NCBI GenBank assembly: GCA_041737355.1
Contig: JBGSRW010000008.1
Coordinates: 24,466-88,465 of the forward strand
DNA: 64,000 bases
Direction of reading: 5' to 3'
Source of the DNA: Patescibacteria group bacterium
GTDB lineage: Bacteria > Patescibacteriota > Patescibacteriia > XYB2-FULL-38-15
Shown here: positions 3,796-58,257 of the stretch, piece after piece
Layout: each line of letters opens with the position of its first letter
Numbering within the stretch: position 1 is the first letter of the stretch
The notes under the pieces: generated by a model
What the model was told of the DNA's origin: nothing
Seen by the model: only the letters and a program-made list of their open reading frames with translations
Databases searched by the model: none
Program-made: the position numbers and the translations under genes

Positions 3796-3859
3796 TACTT
3801 GTTAAGCTGAAATAGGCTTAAAATAAAAAAAGTGCTTGTCGTGTCAAGTTCTTTACAAA

Positions 3860-4044
3860 GTGCCAGAGAAATTTGGAGGAGGAAGTCTTCGCGGACCATT
3901 TATTGGTAACCGCGTGACTCGGTGTTCGGTTGAGTTAAAGCTCGGTTTTCCCGTTTGGGACTACTAAGATTCAACTCGCCAAAACGCCATTGCTGTTCCA
4001 ATGCTAATTGGAGCGGCGCGCTCACCTCCAAATTCCTCTGGCAC
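3860..4044 (+). other. About 185-nt stem-closed structured element (candidate cis-regulatory leader or small RNA) upstream of ORF 4131
   Basis: GTGCCAGAGAAATTTGGAGG (3860-3879) is reverse-complementary to CCTCCAAATTCCTCTGGCAC (4025-4044) with one mismatch over 20 bp. Internal local hairpins are present (CGCGGACC...GGTAACCGCG). No ORF on either strand. Lies between the promoter at 3767 and the RBS at 4117. Confidence 0.3.
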
Positions 4045-4130
4045 ATCTCCGTGAAAAATCGGAGGGCCAAAGGTCAGACTGTGGATGTTCCCGGTCTGAT
4101 TTTAGTAAACGCAAATAAGGAGGTTTTCTG

Positions 4131-5384
4131 ATGGAGAACGGCAGCAAGGAGATTGTGGTTGGCAAGGAGCCGACGGCTACGGCCGAGGCGTTCCTCGAGC
4201 CGCCGAGCGAGGACGACGAGTGGTTGCTCCTGGATTTCAATCCGGCGGCGACCGAGTCCGCGCCGGCCGTGCCCGAGACGCCGAAGCCCAAGCCGCCGCG
4301 CGTCTGCGCGATCTGCCAGCACCCCTCCGGGAATTCGGTGGGCAAGATCAAGCGCGGGCGGATCGCCGAGGTCGAGCACGAAGGGATGAAGCTGCTCACG
4401 CTCGAACCAATCTGCGAACCGTGCGGCGAGAAGTTGCCGCCCGAGGAGCGGAAGAGGCTCTTCAAGGCGGGGTACCTCATCTCCCTGATCGGCGAGAAGA
4501 ACCGCGAGATGCGCGAGTTCGAGGCGGCCAAGGCCTACTGGGCTGCGGTCTTCGCCGGTACGGCAGAGCGGATGCCCGAGGCTCGCAAGACGCCCGAGGA
4601 GATGCTCTCCTGCGGGGTGCCCGGCTGCCCCCGCTGTCACGATCAGGTCGGCCACAAGGTCGGCCACTTCGTGGCGATGACGATCGGCGGCATGCCGACG
4701 CTTCTCGGGGTCTGCTCCTTCCAGGCCGCGGCCTTGGCACAGTGCGGGGTCGAAAAGAAGGGCATCGTCGTGACGACGAAGTTCTCCGTGGCCGCCCCGA
4801 TCGTCGAGGCGGAGAACGCCAGGCTCCAGGCCTTCGAGAAGGCCAAGAGTTTCTGGCTCGCCGTGGCCGAAGGCGAGGCGGCGGTCGAGGCGCGGGCCGA
4901 GAAGACCGAGCGCGGCGACATCTACCGCTGCGGCGTCCCCGGCTGCAAGTGCCGGGAGCACGGCGACCGGCCGGTCGACTACTTCGTGGTCTTGGACGGC
5001 CAGCCCGAGATGCCCATCGCGGGTGTCTGCCGATACCAGTATGCGGCGCTCCGGACCTCCGGGGTGAAGATCTTCGCCGCGAACAACAACGACGGGATGG
5101 GCCTCGCGCGGTGCGCCAAGCACCGCAACTGGCTCCTCGGCCAGGCCAAGAGGGCCATCCGCGACGTCCGGAGGCCGGACGGAATCGGCGGCGGTCTCTC
5201 CCGTTTCCGCTCGCCCGAAGAACAGGCGCGGATCCGCGAGGAGAAGCGCCGGACGTTCGAGGAGCGCGAGGCCAAGCGCCGCTCCCGGCAACTCGAGCGG
5301 GCCAAGGCCTCCTCCAGCAAGGCCGGCTGCGGCAAGAAGGCCAGCAGCAAGAAGGGCGGCAAGGGCGGCGGCAAGAAGCACTAG
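4131..5384 (+). CDS. Hypothetical high-GC Cys-rich protein with N-terminal zinc ribbon, two tandem CxxxxCxxC...C modules and a Lys/Arg-rich C-terminal tail
   Basis: RBS AAGGAGG at 4117-4123, 7 nt before the ATG. High GC with GC-rich third codon positions. Zinc ribbon CAICQHP...CEPCGEK. Duplicated module CGVPGCPRCHDQ...GVCSFQAAAL and CGVPGCKCREHG...GVCRYQYAAL. Tail KKASSKKGGKGGGKKH. Antisense and alternate-frame ORFs are Arg/Pro-rich artefacts. Confidence 0.6.
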   Translation: MENGSKEIVVGKEPTATAEAFLEPPSEDDEWLLLDFNPAATESAPAVPETPKPKPPRVCAICQHPSGNSVGKIKRGRIAEVEHEGMKLLTLEPICEPCGEKLPPEERKRLFKAGYLISLIGEKNREMREFEAAKAYWAAVFAGTAERMPEARKTPEEMLSCGVPGCPRCHDQVGHKVGHFVAMTIGGMPTLLGVCSFQAAALAQCGVEKKGIVVTTKFSVAAPIVEAENARLQAFEKAKSFWLAVAEGEAAVEARAEKTERGDIYRCGVPGCKCREHGDRPVDYFVVLDGQPEMPIAGVCRYQYAALRTSGVKIFAANNNDGMGLARCAKHRNWLLGQAKRAIRDVRRPDGIGGGLSRFRSPEEQARIREEKRRTFEEREAKRRSRQLERAKASSSKAGCGKKASSKKGGKGGGKKH

Positions 5385-5407: not shown

Positions 5408-5542
5408 TTTGTTCTTTTCTTGGAGCAAGTAGTCTGTGCAATGCAGACACTGTTCGTCAATCACTCTAAGGTGAACGGCGACAGGATCTTGCTCCAAGTC
5501 CTTTTCCTCCAAATCAGCGTAAGTTGGTCTGGAGAAAAGGGA
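5408..5542. repeat. Direct repeat copy 1 (135 bp), 24 nt after the stop of ORF 4131-5384
   Basis: Near-identical to 6107-6236 apart from a 5-nt indel. Contains a 10-bp inverted repeat TTGGAGCAAG...CTTGCTCCAA, an inner GTCTG/CAGAC hairpin and a second CCTTTTCCTCCA...TCTGGAGAAAAGG stem. Confidence 0.9.
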
Positions 5543-6106: not shown

Positions 6107-6236
6107 TTTGTTCTTGGAGCAAGTAGTCTGTGCAATGCAGACACTGTTCGTCAATCACTCTAAGGTGAACGGCGACAGGATCTTGCTCCAAGTCCTTTTC
6201 CTCCAAATCAGCGTAAGTTGGTCTGGAGAAAAGGGA
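6107..6236. repeat. Direct repeat copy 2 (130 bp), starting the nucleotide after the stop of ORF 5927-6106
   Basis: Near-identical to 5408-5542. Both copies diverge from each other right after ...GGAGAAAAGGGA. Confidence 0.9.
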
Positions 6237-16188: not shown

Positions 16189-16368
16189 GAAAGGAGGTGA
16201 AAGAATGTTTAAAAATAAAAAAGGTTTCACTTTGATCGAATTGTTGGTGGTTATCGCCATCATCGGTCTTCTCTCGACTTTGGCGGTCGTTGCCTTGAGC
16301 AGCGCCAGAACCAAAGCCAGAGACGCGAAAAGAACTGCCGACATGAAGCAGGTTCAGACAGCCATGGA
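16189..16368 (+). repeat. 180-bp direct repeat copy 1: RBS plus first ~55 codons of pilin gene 1
   Basis: Near-identical to 16740-16919 (a few mismatches). Covers the SD, signal peptide and conserved N-terminal helix. Confidence 0.85.
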
Positions 16369-16648
16369 GCTCTATTATAATACTAATAGCGCTTATCCTT
16401 CATGCGCCGCCGGTACATTGGTTTCGGCTTGCGCCGCCTTAGCACCTGATTACTTGCCGGGCGTTTTGACCCTGAAAGATCCGGGTGGAGTTGCCGGTGC
16501 TTGCGCCGATCCGGCAGCAGCGAAATGTAACTACGCCTTTGGTACTGCCGCAGCGAACGAAGGCTATAGAATTACTTTCTGGCTTGAAGGAGCGACCGGA
16601 GATTTGGCTGCCGGAGCCCACAGAGTTACGGCTATGGGAATCCAGTAA
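16205..16648 (+). CDS. pilA: Type IV major pilin (prepilin, class III signal)
   Basis: MFKNKKGFTLIELLVVIAIIGLLSTLAVVALS is the canonical G|FTLIE prepilin cleavage and N-methylation motif. 147 aa. Confidence 0.85.
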   Translation: MFKNKKGFTLIELLVVIAIIGLLSTLAVVALSSARTKARDAKRTADMKQVQTAMELYYNTNSAYPSCAAGTLVSACAALAPDYLPGVLTLKDPGGVAGACADPAAAKCNYAFGTAAANEGYRITFWLEGATGDLAAGAHRVTAMGIQ

Positions 16649-16739: not shown

Positions 16740-16919
16740 GAAAGGAGGTGAAAGAATGTTTAAAAATAAAAAAGGTTTCACTTTGATCGAATTGTTGGTG
16801 GTTATCGCCATCATCGGTCTTCTCTCGACTTTGGCGGTCGTTGCCTTGAGCAGCGCGAGAACCAAAGCCAGAGATTCAAAACGCGTGGCCGACATGAAGC
16901 AGGTTCAGACAGCCATGGA
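16740..16919 (+). repeat. 180-bp direct repeat copy 2 (5' part of pilin gene 2)
   Basis: See 16189-16368. Confidence 0.85.
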
Positions 16920-17217
16920 AATGGTTTTCAGCGAAGCCAACAGCTACGCCTTGGCTGGATGCACAACGGCCGGTAATAAGGTCAGCCTCTGCACCACGCC
17001 GCTCTCAACTTATTTGCCGAACGTCGCCAATCTTAAGGATCCGAAGGGGTTAAGCGCTTGCGCCGTAGCTTGTGATGGAACAATCACCGCGGCCTGCGAT
17101 TACTCGGTTAAAACCGTGCCGACTGCAAGTACTTACGAGTTTTGTTTCTATTTGGAAACAGCTACGGGCGATTTAGCGGCCGGAGCCCATAAAGTTACGC
17201 CAGCTGGGATTCAATAG
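16756..17217 (+). CDS. pilA: Type IV major pilin paralog 2
   Basis: N-terminal 50 aa identical to pilin 1. Divergent central and C-terminal domain with a conserved end ...TGDLAAGAHKVT. 153 aa. Confidence 0.85.
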   Translation: MFKNKKGFTLIELLVVIAIIGLLSTLAVVALSSARTKARDSKRVADMKQVQTAMEMVFSEANSYALAGCTTAGNKVSLCTTPLSTYLPNVANLKDPKGLSACAVACDGTITAACDYSVKTVPTASTYEFCFYLETATGDLAAGAHKVTPAGIQ

Positions 17218-39635: not shown

Positions 39636-39821
39636 ATGGCAGAAGAAAATAGCGGGAAACCGCGGGATGATCGAAGTGATCGCGACCGTGATGTTCCAGG
39701 AATGCCCAAGGGATGGCGGCCCGGAGACCTGATCGTGATTCCGCTTGGACCTGAAGACGAATTTCCTGAGAGCAGGATGGATTTCTCTCTCCCGTTCTGG
39801 GTGGGAACGCCCGTGGAGTAG
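39636..39821 (+). CDS. Hypothetical high-GC small protein (61 aa)
   Basis: Strong SD, high GC, followed by terminator. MAEENSGKPRDDRSDRDRD... Confidence 0.4.
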   Translation: MAEENSGKPRDDRSDRDRDVPGMPKGWRPGDLIVIPLGPEDEFPESRMDFSLPFWVGTPVE

Positions 39822-45964: not shown

Positions 45965-46345
45965 TTATTTGATTTTTAGAAATGACTTAACTTTGGCGAA
46001 TAGAAGGGGATAGGTTTTCTTAATTCGCGGAGCGGACAAGACCTTCTTGATTGATACAGCGGTTCCTTTTGGAATGATGACGTTTTTTGGGAATTGGTCG
46101 CTGGTAAAATCAATTTCTTTACCGTTTGGCAGGCGATTCCAGAAGTGGGACATAAACGGCCGTTTTCTGATGACGGCGTAAAGGATTTTTCCGCCAAGTA
46201 ATTTTTGGACAACCGCAGAGGTTACCCGGCATTGGTCGGCGGCAGGATTTTTAGGATTAAACCTTCCGGTCCAGGAAGTTTCTTTGCCCCAAGAGGCCCG
46301 AAGCGCCAGACCAAGTTTTTTTTGATTTATTTTTCCAGAAGCCAT
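45965..46345 (-). CDS. YunG-like hypothetical protein
   Basis: ASWGKETSWTGRFNPKNPAADQCRVTSAVVQKLLGG resembles the Bacillus YunG family (AWSxETS...NPxxGQCxVT). Confidence 0.4.
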   Translation of the reverse strand: MASGKINQKKLGLALRASWGKETSWTGRFNPKNPAADQCRVTSAVVQKLLGGKILYAVIRKRPFMSHFWNRLPNGKEIDFTSDQFPKNVIIPKGTAVSIKKVLSAPRIKKTYPLLFAKVKSFLKIK

Positions 46346-46381
46346 TTAAAAATATAATTAATTGACCTTTAAATTTAAATT

Positions 46382-46390
46382 TGCTATAGT
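46382..46390 (+). promoter_or_regulatory. Extended -10 TGCTATAGT upstream of GC-rich noncoding element
   Basis: TGnTATAGT. Lies in the divergent intergenic region. Confidence 0.35.
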
Positions 46391-46396
46391 TTAATC

Positions 46397-46652
46397 AACT
46401 TGGAGCAGTCAGACTGGCAAGGGCTGCTCGCGCGCCGCGAAGCATGTTTCGGGCGCCAAGTTCTGCTAACCACCAGTTGCGGGGCTAAGTAGCGACGAGC
46501 GAAAAGCCTGCAATACCGCCCGCAGCGACCCGCTGAACCTCGCGGATCGCGAGCCGAGCATCCCTGCGCACCATGGGTAAAGTCCGACGTCACGTCGACG
46601 CGGTACCGTGGCTGAGCGCGAACTAATGCTCACTGGTGGTTTATTTTTTTTG
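46397..46652 (+). ncRNA. Candidate stand-alone structured ncRNA (about 255 nt, about 60% GC), identity unresolved
   Basis: No ORF. GC-rich island in an AT-rich genome. Long-range inverted repeat ACCACCAG (46470s) / CTGGTGGT (46634-46642). Local hairpins GAGCAG...CTGCTC and CGACG-TCA-CGTCG. Ends in GGTGGTTTATTTTTTTT. Upstream -10, and a separate promoter for the next gene follows. Confidence 0.3.
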
Positions 46653-46670
46653 GCTTAATTAAAATTTTTA

Positions 46671-46679
46671 TGTTATGAT
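46671..46679 (+). promoter_or_regulatory. Extended -10 TGTTATGAT upstream of the helicase-nuclease gene
   Basis: TGnTATGAT 43 nt before ATG 46722. Confidence 0.35.
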
Positions 46680-46721: not shown

Positions 46722-49640
46722 ATGGCCGAGGATTTGTTGAAGGATTTAAACCAGGCGCAAAAGGAGGCGGTATCCCATGAAGAGGGGCCGCTTTTGATTG
46801 TGGCCGGCGCGGGGACAGGGAAAACAACCGTCATCACGCGGCGGCTGGCTTTTTTGATTTTGGAAAAGAAAATAAAGCCGGACGAAGTATTGGCACTCAC
46901 TTTTACGGAAAAGGCGGCCGGAGAAATGGAAGAGCGGGCCGACCAGCTTTTGCCTTACGGTTATGTTGATCTCTGGATTTCAACTTTTCATTCTTTTTGC
47001 GAGCGGATTTTAAAAGACCACGCGATCGAGATCGGTTTGCCGGGTGATTTTAAATTATTAAACCAGACCGGGCAATGGTTGCTCGTGCGCCAGAATCTGG
47101 AAAGGTTCAATCTTGATTATTACCGGCCGCTCGGCAATCCGACAAAATTTATCCATACCCTACTGAAACATTTTAGTCGGGCCAAGGATGAAGAGATCTG
47201 GCCGGAAAATTATCTTGATTACGCGGAAAATTTAAAACTTAATAAAGACAGCGCAATTGCCGAAGACAAAGACCGCCTCCTTGAAGTTGCGAGCGCCTAT
47301 CACGCTTACCAGCAATTGCTTTTGGAAAATAATGCCTTGGATTTTGGCGACCTGATAAATTATACCTTAAAACTTTTTCGTACCCGGCCGGCTATTTTGG
47401 AAAAATACCGGCAAAAGTTTAAGTATATTTTGGTCGACGAATTTCAGGATACCAATTGGGCGCAGTACGAGCTGATTAAAATGCTTGCCGCGCCCAAGAA
47501 CAATTTAACCGTGGTGGGCGACGACGATCAGTCGATTTATAAATTCCGTGGCGCCTCTATTTCCAATATTTTGCAATTTAAAAACGATTATCCGGATTGC
47601 CGAGAAATTATTATCACCGACAATTATCGCAACAAACAGAATATTCTCGATCTGGCTTATAAATTTATCAAACAAAATAACCCCAACCGGCTTGAGGCAA
47701 AATTGGGAATTGTAAAAAAGCTTGAGGCGAAGAGAGGGGGGGAGGGAATTGTTGAACATCTTCACGCCAAGACGGCCGACCAGGAGGCACGTACCGTTGC
47801 CGAAAAGATTTTGGAACTTAAAAAATCCGATAATTCTATAGGCTGGCAGGATTTTGCTATTTTGGTCCGGGCGAATAATCAGGCCGAAGCTTTCATGCAA
47901 GTTCTTGATCAATACGGAATTCCGTATCACTTTCTGGCTTCAGCCGGGCTTTATTCCAAGCCGGTGATTCTGGACATCATCGCTTATTTGAAAATGCTGG
48001 ATAATTATCACGAATCGACCGCGCTTTACAGAATTTTAAATATGCCGCTCGTCGATCTGCCTTATGACGATATTGTCGCCCTGAATTATTCTGTACGAAA
48101 AAAGAATTGGTCGCTGTATGAGGCGATGAAAAACGCCGCGGTGGTCGGAGTTTCCGGGGAAAGTTTGCGGAAAATCAATAAACTTCTCGGATTTGTTGAA
48201 CGGCATACGGGAATTGTCCGCGAACACGGCGTGAGTAAAGTGGTTTTCAAGTTTTTGGAGGATTTTAATTATTTGGCCAGTTTGACTAAAAAAGCGGAAA
48301 AAGACGATTTACGGGCGGTGGAAAAAATAAGTTATATCAATCAATTTTTAAAAAAGATAGATGACTTCGAACGGGTAAATACAGATAAATCCGTTAAAAA
48401 TTTTATTCTTGAACTTGAGATGGCGCTTGAATCCGGAGAGGAGGGATCACTGGCTTCGGAATTCGACGAGGGACCTGAAACCGTAAAAATCCTGACGGTT
48501 CACGGGGCAAAGGGTCTGGAATTCAAATATGTTTTTATTGTTAATCTAGTGGACCTTCGTTTTCCGTCTACCGACCGGAAAGAGCCGATAGAATTGCCGA
48601 ACGCCCTGGTAAAAGAAGTCTTGCCCGAGGGTGATATTCATCTTGAGGAAGAGCGTAGATTATTTTATGTCGCCGTGACTCGTGCTAAGGATGGAATATT
48701 TTTTACTTCGGCGGCCGATTACGGCGGCCAGCGGAAAAAGAAATTGTCCCGCTTCCTGGTCGAGCTTGGATTTGTCGCGCCGGAAATAAAAAATCCGACC
48801 GGCAATGTTTATTTCGACGAGGATACTGCCGTAAAGACAGAGGGCGTGGTCAAAAAAAGAATCTGGATTCCAAGCAAGTTCAGCTTTACCCAGCTTAAGG
48901 CGTTTGAAACCTGTCCGCTGCAATACAAATTCGCCCACGTGTTGGTCGTGCCGACGCGCGGTAAGTTTACTTTCAGTTTTGGGAAAACCATGCACGGGAC
49001 CTTGCAGAAATTTTTCGACCAGATAATTAAAAAAACAAATCATCAGCAGACAAGCTTGTTCGGAGAAGTTCCGGCGGAAGAAACAAACGGGTTATCGGTT
49101 GAAAGTCTTATTAAGCTTTACGATGAAAGCTGGATCGGCGATTGGTATGAAAGCAAAAGCCACGAAGAGGAATATAGGAAACTTGGCCGGGACAAACTCA
49201 AGGAATTTTATAAAATTCACGAAGGCAAATGGCCAAAAACAAAATTCCTAGAAAAGGGATTTAATCTTAAGATAGGGGATTACACGGTGCGTGGCGTGAT
49301 TGACCGGATTGACGAGATTCCCGGCGGCGTAGAAATTGTTGATTATAAAACTGGCAGCGTGCCCAAGGACGAAAAATTTTTGGATAAAGACCAGCTTTTG
49401 ATTTATCAGGCCGCAGCGAGCGAAGTATTGGGCGAAAAGCCGGCTCTTTTGAGTTATTATTATCTTGGAGCAAATCAAAAAATGTCTTTTATCGGCACGG
49501 ATGAGGAAGTCGGGGAAATAAAAGAAAAAATAATTGAAACTATCGAGGAAATTAAAAAAAGCGATTTTTCTCCCAAGCCGAGCTTGTTCAGCTGCAAGAA
49601 TTGCGATTTTAAGGATATTTGCGAACATCGAATCCTCTAA
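46722..49640 (+). CDS. UvrD/PcrA-family helicase fused to a C-terminal RecB/Cas4-like PD-(D/E)xK nuclease with 4-Cys cluster (AddA-like)
   Basis: Helicase motifs GAGTGKT, DEFQDT, QNYRS. C-terminal domain has FETCPLQYKF...GVIDRIDEI...DYKTG...QLLIYQ...CKNCDFKDIC. 972 aa. Confidence 0.8.
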   Translation: MAEDLLKDLNQAQKEAVSHEEGPLLIVAGAGTGKTTVITRRLAFLILEKKIKPDEVLALTFTEKAAGEMEERADQLLPYGYVDLWISTFHSFCERILKDHAIEIGLPGDFKLLNQTGQWLLVRQNLERFNLDYYRPLGNPTKFIHTLLKHFSRAKDEEIWPENYLDYAENLKLNKDSAIAEDKDRLLEVASAYHAYQQLLLENNALDFGDLINYTLKLFRTRPAILEKYRQKFKYILVDEFQDTNWAQYELIKMLAAPKNNLTVVGDDDQSIYKFRGASISNILQFKNDYPDCREIIITDNYRNKQNILDLAYKFIKQNNPNRLEAKLGIVKKLEAKRGGEGIVEHLHAKTADQEARTVAEKILELKKSDNSIGWQDFAILVRANNQAEAFMQVLDQYGIPYHFLASAGLYSKPVILDIIAYLKMLDNYHESTALYRILNMPLVDLPYDDIVALNYSVRKKNWSLYEAMKNAAVVGVSGESLRKINKLLGFVERHTGIVREHGVSKVVFKFLEDFNYLASLTKKAEKDDLRAVEKISYINQFLKKIDDFERVNTDKSVKNFILELEMALESGEEGSLASEFDEGPETVKILTVHGAKGLEFKYVFIVNLVDLRFPSTDRKEPIELPNALVKEVLPEGDIHLEEERRLFYVAVTRAKDGIFFTSAADYGGQRKKKLSRFLVELGFVAPEIKNPTGNVYFDEDTAVKTEGVVKKRIWIPSKFSFTQLKAFETCPLQYKFAHVLVVPTRGKFTFSFGKTMHGTLQKFFDQIIKKTNHQQTSLFGEVPAEETNGLSVESLIKLYDESWIGDWYESKSHEEEYRKLGRDKLKEFYKIHEGKWPKTKFLEKGFNLKIGDYTVRGVIDRIDEIPGGVEIVDYKTGSVPKDEKFLDKDQLLIYQAAASEVLGEKPALLSYYYLGANQKMSFIGTDEEVGEIKEKIIETIEEIKKSDFSPKPSLFSCKNCDFKDICEHRIL

Positions 49641-57930: not shown

Positions 57931-58257
57931 ATGGGACCGGAAATTGCGATCCAGTTGGCCTTGCGCCAGAAGCTGGCAGCTTTCGGCATCAGGAACCACG
58001 TCGAGCCGGAGGTGATTCCGAACGCTTTGAATGCGGTTCGACTTCTGGGTCACAGCCAGATTCTTGTCTTGGGTAGCTGTAGCGCGTCTTCTCCATGGTC
58101 AAAGACCACGGATGAGCCGATCGTGGCTCTGACTTGCAGGATGATCACGGACATGCAGCTCAAGGGAGAGAGGATCGAAATCACAACCACGCCCGACACG
58201 TCCGAGGAACGCGAGAAGACTGGCTTCCGCCGGATCGACCTGCGCCTCAAGAAGTAG
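57931..58257 (+). CDS. Hypothetical high-GC protein (108 aa)
   Basis: Own promoter, RBS and terminator. High GC. No recognised motif. Confidence 0.5.
   Translation: MGPEIAIQLALRQKLAAFGIRNHVEPEVIPNALNAVRLLGHSQILVLGSCSASSPWSKTTDEPIVALTCRMITDMQLKGERIEITTTPDTSEEREKTGFRRIDLRLKK

Follow-up and report, generated by a model that had tools for sequence, protein, structure and literature searches.

To our knowledge, almost nothing is known of the noncoding RNAs of candidate phyla radiation (CPR) bacteria beyond rRNA, tRNA and a diverged RNase P RNA. Among the RNAs that invite comparison, large signal recognition particle (SRP) RNA has an Alu-domain/helix-5 layout, in which a 5' three-way junction precedes a helix closed by the 3' end, and the orphan RNAs of GC-rich intergenic regions (GC-IGR) from the Breaker laboratory (for example raiA, OLE, ROOL and GOLLD) are stand-alone, GC-rich, multi-branched molecules of a few hundred nucleotides, a profile shared by the element described here. 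Some CPR RNase P RNAs score below the Rfam noise cut-offs (PMC8172020). We analyzed a stretch of 64,000 nt from a Patescibacteria group bacterium (contig JBGSRW010000008.1 of assembly GCA_041737355.1), referred to below as the window. Between a helicase gene and a divergently oriented YunG-family gene lies an element of ~255 nt, for which an earlier reading of the sequence (the original prediction) had proposed a noncoding RNA gene. We consider, with a probability of about 0.6, that the element is an independent gene whose product is a structured noncoding RNA of a new family, found in a narrow clade of ultra-small Patescibacteria and acting in trans.

Judged from sequence comparison, the element is very probably a functional noncoding RNA gene. 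It shows the generic properties of a stand-alone noncoding RNA: a promoter and a terminator of its own, the lack of a coding frame, and conservation beyond neutral expectation. The promoter scan identified a near-consensus sigma-70 promoter that agrees with the consensus at 10 of 12 positions and carries an extended -10 TG; promoter-like sites number three in the 600-bp region, against 0.6 expected from shuffles. The predicted RNA starts at A46397 or A46398 and ends in a T8 run (46644-46651), and the lengths of its homologues range from 248 to 311 nt. Both the extended -10 in the divergent intergenic region and the terminal T8 run had been noted in the original prediction. The signals of the transcription unit are as follows.

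46362-46390, + strand: RNA promoter, with -35 TTGACC at 46362-46367, a 17-nt spacer and -10 TGcTATAGT at 46382-46390.
46397-46651, + strand: predicted noncoding transcript of ~255 nt, with no conserved open reading frame (ORF) and no Rfam match.
46632-46651, + strand: 3' strand of the closing helix P2, ACUGGUGGUU, followed directly by UAU8; presumed intrinsic terminator, invariant in six of six versions.

The terminator formed by P2 and U8 was not called by a simple terminator scan, because its "loop" is 154 nt long. GC content is 60% over the ~255 nt of the element, 63.5% in 46400-46599 and 66% at the 150-nt peak, compared with 45.1% in the whole window. The element is thus as GC-rich as had been proposed (~60%), whereas the genome, described as low in GC, is only moderately so (45%), and its other GC-rich islands are protein-coding. 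Stops interrupt all six frames of the window version, whose longest ORF encodes 69 aa on the minus strand. When the six versions described below were compared, no reading frame on either strand was common to all, and 1-nt insertions or deletions in the conserved segment break every frame; the proposed absence of a coding sequence is therefore borne out beyond this single genome.

Contigs of relatives were obtained in two ways. The 69-aa ORF was used as a degenerate multi-pattern probe on metagenome contigs, which yielded L087 and L088, and further contigs were obtained by fetching the loci of YunG homologues. In assemblies from JGI, ENA and Logan, at least five further distinct versions of the element (at least six with that of the window) occur beside at least six further YunG variants on 11 contigs; these versions are L087, L088 (the same as L096), L089 (also in L090, L091 and L092), L093 and L094 (the same as L095). 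All recovered copies are divergent from, and upstream of, a YunG gene, and their promoter and U-tract are conserved. The -35 TTGACC is kept in all six versions and the -10 reads TGyTATAGT in five, with TGTTACATT in L093; the 3' end reads GGCUCACUGGUGGUUUAU8 throughout, except for the UGCUCAC that replaces GGCUCAC in the window. The conservation in relatives for which the original prediction had called is therefore seen: at least five further versions retain the promoter, nearly invariant 82 nt at the 5' end, the closing helix and the U8 tract.

The strength of this conservation is best appreciated by comparison with the adjacent gene. Across seven loci, mean pairwise identity is 96% in the first 82 nt of the RNA (window 46398-46479), which comprise the 5' domain, the linker and the 5' strand of P2, but in YunG it is 85% at codon positions 1 and 2, 67% at position 3 and 68% at fourfold-degenerate sites; the 5' part of the RNA thus changes ~8 times more slowly than neighboring synonymous sites. 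The middle of the element is a highly divergent mosaic of interchangeable hairpins. Since this mosaic center belongs to the same cassette, the conservation of the 5' part reflects selection and not recent spread.

The gene order around the homologues indicates that the RNA is not a cis leader. Its 3' neighbor is the helicase gene in the window, L087 and L093, whereas in three of the five other versions (L088, L089 and L094) it is a convergent pentapeptide-repeat gene. This convergent gene is visible on five of the eight contigs that reach the 3' neighbor (L088, L089-L091 and L096), and L094/L095 carry the same 3' flank as these versions. With a convergent gene at the RNA 3' end in three versions, the RNA is no leader of the helicase gene. 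A riboswitch or other cis-acting 5' leader was also rejected on the grounds that no same-strand downstream gene is present in all members and that the helicase has a conserved promoter of its own, as had been proposed for the next gene:

46650-46679, + strand: helicase promoter TTGGCT-18-TGtTATGAT from the promoter scan, outside the element and kept in the RNA-less orthologues L001-L003, L051 and L084.

Because this promoter is retained upstream of the helicase gene in orthologous loci that have no element, it is a separate promoter. Conservation, the slow evolution of the 5' part, the absence of a maintained frame and the convergent 3' neighbors together support the interpretation as a noncoding RNA gene.

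As for a new family, searches for known ones were empty. Rfam 15 gave no match at gathering thresholds in the whole window and nothing relevant at E<=10, either with queries of 261-551 nt of the window version or with the longer L089 version; the output at E<=10 consisted of noise (MIR856, snoR30 and similar). ARAGORN found no tRNA or tmRNA (transfer-messenger RNA) in the window, and a literature search found no description of such an RNA. An empty Rfam search had been listed among the outcomes that would count against the original prediction, and that outcome was indeed obtained.

In the predicted secondary structure, the architecture is the same in all six versions when the modules are folded separately. 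The long-range repeat ACCACCAG (46469-46476) pairs with CTGGTGGT (46633-46640) and extends to a 10-bp helix, AACCACCAGU/ACUGGUGGUU, that is invariant across the six versions; the long-range and local inverted repeats seen previously are confirmed. A linker, UCUGCU, separates the 5' domain from a four-way junction of P2, P3, P4 and P5, which is modeled without unpaired nucleotides between the helices. The predicted fold consists of the following parts.

46398-46461, + strand: 5' domain, modeled as a three-way junction, the most conserved part.
46398-46402 with 46457-46461, + strand: P1.
46403-46410 with 46422-46429, + strand: P1a, with an invariant 11-nt loop, AGACUGGCAAG.
46432-46441 with 46448-46456, + strand: P1b.
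46468-46477 with 46632-46641, + strand: P2, 5' strand AACCACCAGU; 10 of 10 pairs invariant in six of six versions.
46478-46524, + strand: P3 arm, with closing helix UGCGGG/CCCGCA (46478-46483 with 46519-46524).
46525-46550, + strand: P4 arm, with closing helix GCGA/UCGC.
46551-46631, + strand: P5 arm, with closing helix GAGC/GCUC; holds the non-conserved AAAGUCCG.
46566-46569 with 46616-46619: P5a.
46571-46576 with 46606-46611: P5b.
46585-46589 with 46593-46597: P5c.

The modeled pairs of the core helices are canonical in 95.8% of cases, compared with 34-39% when the partners are slid. Variable sites and indels of the 5' domain are located at the P1/P1a junction, in the linker between P1a and P1b, and in the bulge and the loop of P1b; the L094 changes C46431U and G46437U affect unpaired positions of the three-way junction, whereas they break a pair in the elongated fold of RNAalifold. 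Several pairs alternate between G-U and G-C or A-U, which supports the + strand because each such G-U would become an A-C mismatch in the complementary strand. The arms vary more freely. The apex of P3 exists as two sequence types that cannot be aligned with each other, and its inner stem differs between GGCU/AGCC (window, L093) and GGCC/GGCC (remaining four versions), a change of U-A to C-G. The inner hairpin of P4 is CCGC-loop-GCGG in the window and GUCGC-loop-GCGAC in L087 and L089, and these two unrelated hairpins are both significantly stable (z of -2.6 to -3.8 against shuffles). The P5 arm contains ~50 extra nt in L094 and L089.

Several observations nevertheless count against a structured RNA gene as described here. 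Of the 56 modeled pairs, 40 never vary and one is doubly changed, and shuffles matched the covariation score in 157 of 500 trials, which makes the covariation statistics indistinguishable from chance. Against dinucleotide shuffles, the whole RNA has a folding z-score of only -1.2 to -2.2, and the opposite strand gives similar values; shuffles match the folding energies of the 5' domain, P3 and P5, and the 5' fold itself is therefore tentative. What is conserved in the 5' domain could thus be a function of the sequence itself or of the DNA, and not the fold drawn. The comparison covers six distinct sequences, all from related environmental assemblies. Finally, L088 and L096 share an identical RNA beside flanks that differ by 10-20%: between L088 354-617 and L096 339-596 the RNA is 100% identical, but the promoter spacer is 90% identical and YunG is 80% identical at the nucleotide level and 79% at the amino acid level, a pattern that may reflect either recombination limited to the RNA gene or chimeric metagenome assembly. 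Overall, we regard the secondary structure model as plausible, with modest, indirect support from the replaced P4 hairpin, the placement of the indels and the G-U/G-C switches.

In the scheme that we favor, a strong sigma-70-type promoter would give rise to a GC-rich transcript of 250-310 nt, composed of a near-invariant 5' domain (the three-way junction) and the linker-free four-way junction, and the closing helix P2, formed just before the U8 tract, would terminate transcription. The functional surface would be the invariant 5' domain and the junction core, with the three peripheral arms tolerating wholesale replacement. A role in trans, as a protein-binding RNA, scaffold or regulator, would fit better than that of a leader of a neighboring gene, and we give slightly less than an even chance to the RNA acting in trans as described. 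The further proposal that the RNA is the founding member of a Patescibacteria-specific class, either as the RNA subunit of a ribonucleoprotein or as a ribozyme, is tentative and on balance doubtful. A possible partner is to be sought among the lineage-specific GC-rich proteins of the same genomes, for example a Cys-rich, Lys-tailed protein of 417 aa (4131-5384).

The genomic surroundings allow the history of the locus to be reconstructed. The gene 3' of the element encodes a UvrD/PD-(D/E)XK helicase-nuclease of 972 aa (46722-49640) and is followed by dciA; its nearest orthologues are found in metagenome-assembled genomes of Patescibacteria and Falkowbacteria. On the other, divergent side lies the gene for the YunG-family protein (126 aa), followed by GNAT and PD40 genes. 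We rejected a defense-system identity of the neighboring genes, as only generic UvrD/GajB-type similarity was found for the helicase, a conserved core gene. In relatives that have no RNA, a pentapeptide-repeat gene overlaps the start codon of YunG (…GAATGAAC…), and the YunG protein starts with MN…, MKK… or MK…. In RNA-bearing genomes, ~310-370 bp separate the pentapeptide and YunG genes, and the pentapeptide ORF ends in an A8 run. Here YunG starts with MAS(G/E) in seven of seven genes, a start found in none of the five examined RNA-less genes and absent from all other YunG homologues among 5.8 billion protein clusters. Two features on the minus strand bear on this change.

46334-46345, - strand: new YunG start region, ATGGCTTCTGGA, encoding MASG, which came with the cassette.
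46351-46379, - strand: promoter-like site TTTAAA-17-TATATT, divergent, for YunG, from the promoter scan; it overlaps the RNA promoter, a layout conserved in homologues.

Comparison of these loci indicates that the element is one discrete insertion of ~310-370 bp into a pentapeptide-YunG operon, with the RNA gene on the opposite strand, and that YunG thereby acquired a new start codon and a new divergent promoter, which overlaps that of the RNA. The -10 of this YunG promoter (TATATT) ends 5 nt before the ATG (46345) and there is no Shine-Dalgarno sequence, the same in all RNA-bearing relatives, which suggests that the YunG mRNA is leaderless. By the same comparison, the window, L087 and L093 subsequently lost both the methyltransferase and the pentapeptide gene, which brought the U-tract up against the -35 of the helicase promoter in these three. 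Since the MAS start is confined to RNA-bearing YunG genes, the clade that carries the RNA appears small, and the RNA appears restricted to a narrow group of Patescibacteria.

Searches beyond these contigs agree with a narrow distribution. Neither blastn nor nhmmer found a copy of the element at the 80 best helicase-orthologue loci of GTDB species representatives; the closest orthologues (80-90% aa identity) keep the helicase promoter and have a methyltransferase or pentapeptide-repeat gene upstream, but no element. DNA searches of phage and plasmid collections recovered no copy, scans of IMG/VR with exact or back-translated patterns found nothing, and a search of 791 kb of related DNA with R1, a covariance model built on the 5' domain, detected no copies beyond those described above. 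The window itself has neither a second copy nor a variable repeat of the diversity-generating retroelement type. The absence of the element at this locus from equally close relatives fits an accessory gene rather than a housekeeping RNA.

The slot between the helicase promoter and YunG (46346-46650 in the window; ~2300-2830 in L001, 1806-3986 in L081, 3710-3997 in L084 and 3416-4651 in L089) varies in content among close relatives. Its occupants include fn3-domain proteins, a 95-aa ORF and a methyltransferase gene paired with one for a pentapeptide-repeat protein; in the window it holds the RNA only. It is a local hotspot of gene turnover, with no integrase visible. In the RNA-less L001 (2880-2990) and L003 (2940-2990), short GC-rich, hairpin-forming inserts are located between the helicase promoter and the start codon; one example is cattgcgagccgcagcgaagcaatc…gattgcttcg, and the inserts differ between genomes.

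The main competing explanation, which we regard as unlikely but the best placed of the alternatives, is that the element is a cis-acting regulatory cassette that works through a strong promoter, through transcriptional interference and through a conditional terminator, and in which the RNA body would have no function in trans. The overlapping divergent promoters would set the expression of the YunG operon, and read-through at P2/U8 would reach helicase-dciA in the window type or run antisense into the pentapeptide/methyltransferase operon in the L089 type. The physical overlap of the RNA and YunG promoters, which therefore cannot both be occupied at once, fits this explanation, as does the severing of YunG from its former operon with the gain of a new start codon. 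The invariant P1a loop contains ACUGG, as does the 3' strand of P2, and could compete for CCAGU in the P2 5' strand in the manner of an anti-terminator. Selection, however, spans 82 transcribed nt as well as the 3' end, which exceeds the needs of a promoter and a terminator; the downstream gene varies between versions and leaves no consistent regulated target; the helicase retains its own conserved promoter; and no ligand-binding aptamer family was found in the Rfam searches. A trans-acting RNA gene remains our preferred reading.

Considerably less probable is a selfish or relic insertion, for instance what is left of a mobile element or of a foreign GC-rich gene, kept for the promoter and start codon that it gave to YunG. 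The element is indeed a discrete insertion that equally close relatives do not have, it sits in a slot of strain-variable gene content, and the identical RNAs of L088 and L096 stand beside diverged flanks. Against this, each genome fragment examined has a single copy at a single locus, with no extra copy in the 791 kb or the window, and the perfect association with the MAS start points to a single ancient insertion that was then inherited vertically. No terminal repeats, transposase or integrase, or intron signatures were found, nor matches in phage, plasmid and viral collections, and the 69-aa minus-strand ORF, the one translated frame searched, has no homologue among 5.8 billion protein clusters. 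A relic would not keep 82 nt at 96% identity while adjacent synonymous sites fell to 68%.

It is very improbable that the Rfam models have missed a housekeeping RNA (RNase P, SRP, 6S or tmRNA) here because of its strong divergence. The topology of the element may be likened to the Alu-domain/helix-5 layout of large SRP RNA, it contains a partial RNase P-like octamer, AAAGUCCG, as originally pointed out, and CPR RNase P RNAs can fall below the Rfam noise cut-offs (PMC8172020). Yet queries of 261-336 nt from two RNA versions returned nothing from these families at E<=10, ARAGORN was empty, and the absence of the insertion at the same locus in close relatives fits an accessory gene. The octamer (46578-46585) sits in a local internal loop of P5; its AAAGUCC occurs only in the window, L087 and L088 and is missing from L093, L094 and L089, and with AAAGUCCG in three of six versions there is no conserved RNase P conserved region I (CR-I) box. 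Pairing of CR-I (GGAAAGUCC) with CR-V to form P4 finds no partner of the CGGACUU or GGCUUA type in the element. RNase P RNA (RF00010/RF00011) was rejected on these grounds, and the resemblance is a chance match. The other candidates were rejected as follows: tmRNA because ARAGORN found none in the window and Rfam gave no match; small or large SRP RNA because it has no Rfam match, no helix-8 GNRA/AGCA motif and no arm with a GGAA-type loop and an AGCA motif, and the topology alone is similar; and 6S RNA because the prediction is a multi-branched fold containing both a three-way and a four-way junction, and Rfam gave no match. The failure to match any of the four by eye in the original prediction is thus borne out by Rfam, ARAGORN and the motif tests.

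A small-protein gene or type I toxin mRNA, as might be suggested by the long open frames of GC-rich sequence (69 aa on the minus strand of the window, 103 aa in the L089 version), can practically be dismissed, as no frame is common to all versions, 1-nt indels fall in the most conserved segment, the candidate AUGs of the window (46445 and 46573) are ACG in other versions, and the candidate ORFs have no Shine-Dalgarno sequence, no hydrophobic peptide and, for the 69-aa ORF, no homologue among the protein clusters.

Other parts of the window also carry GC-rich or structured sequences. The 417-aa ORF (4131-5384, + strand) reaches 75% GC and encodes three Cys-rich repeats (…CGVPGC.(R)C…) and a Lys/Gly-rich tail; it belongs to no Pfam or PHROG family and has no viral relative. 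It matches an NCBI contig of 268,902 nt at 100% and has eight homologue clusters at 36-57% identity. A homologue is present on the same 149.6-kb contig as RNA version L089 and none on the 567-kb contig of the RNA-less L084; the protein and the RNA occur in the same genome in the two cases that can be checked, and this possible co-occurrence is a lead only. The 5' leader of this ORF (3835-4135, + strand) has a minimum free energy of -125 kcal/mol against -85 for shuffles (z = -7.5), a structure signal that exceeds that of the RNA element. A 20-bp stem in the leader (3860-3879 with 4027-4046) encloses a multi-branch domain, two hairpins precede the ribosome-binding site, and Rfam gave no match at E<=1.

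Two small GC-rich ORFs are flanked by a perfect 126-nt direct repeat (5417-5542 and 6111-6236, + strand), the copies of which form a predicted three-way junction closed by CUUGGAGCAAG/CUUGCUCCAAG and a 3' hairpin (z = -6.0), with no Rfam match. The RNA and this repeat (5417, 6111) begin with the same 9 nt, CUUGGAGCA; we rejected a relationship, as such a match is expected by chance for a 9-mer. Two more small GC-rich ORFs, 39636-39821 (+ strand, 61 aa) and 57931-58257 (+ strand, 108 aa), have their own ribosome-binding site and a hairpin with a T-run, the latter also a TTGACA-type -35, and neither is in Pfam or PHROG. A 180-nt direct repeat of 95% identity (16189-16368 and 16740-16919) comprises the 5' parts of the tandem paralogous ORFs 16205-16648 and 16756-17217. 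Exact look-ups of the window proteins gave no matches.

An accessory GC-rich RNA gene with a near-consensus promoter and a slowly evolving 5' part is notable in genomes as tiny as these. The RNA probably does a specific job, possibly tied to the episymbiotic lifestyle or to lineage-specific proteins. The locus also illustrates how insertion of an RNA gene into an operon can rewire the downstream gene, which here gained a new promoter and a new N-terminus. In practical terms, the element is a candidate for a new Rfam family and a target for metatranscriptome mapping.

Compared with known systems, the element shares with RNase P RNA, including its diverged CPR forms (PMC8172020), the character of a GC-rich structured CPR RNA that could escape the Rfam gathering thresholds, and the octamer AAAGUCCG. 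It differs in that the octamer is not conserved, that a P4 pseudoknot partner and a P1 joining the 5' and 3' ends are both missing, and that the conserved part of the 250-nt RNA lies at the 5' end, outside the closing helix; RF00010 and RF00011 were empty at E<=10. Large bacterial and archaeal SRP RNA is similar in its two-hairpin 5' three-way junction, in the subsequent enclosing helix with the 3' end, and in a length of 250-310 nt. In the element, by contrast, the helix-8 motif of a GNRA loop and conserved symmetric and asymmetric loops is missing and no covariance model matches; the enclosed four-way junction carries variable arms, and the gene is probably an accessory one that stems from a recent insertion.

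Like 6S and other protein-binding regulatory RNAs, the element forms an independent transcription unit whose promoter is strong and whose GC-rich body measures ~200-300 nt, but it is not rod-shaped with a central bubble, has no Rfam 6S match and is not broadly conserved. By analogy with 6S-like RNAs, the most plausible generic mode of action would be protein binding in trans. The GC-IGR orphan RNAs resemble it further in their GC-rich intergenic signature with an own promoter and terminator and in their patchy, accessory distribution. The element has no sequence or structure match to these families in Rfam 15, is much rarer (at least seven loci in one Patescibacteria clade) and is smaller than OLE, ROOL and GOLLD. 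Orphan RNAs turn up regularly, and what distinguishes this one is its occurrence in a CPR genome, the strong constraint on its sequence and its clear insertion history.

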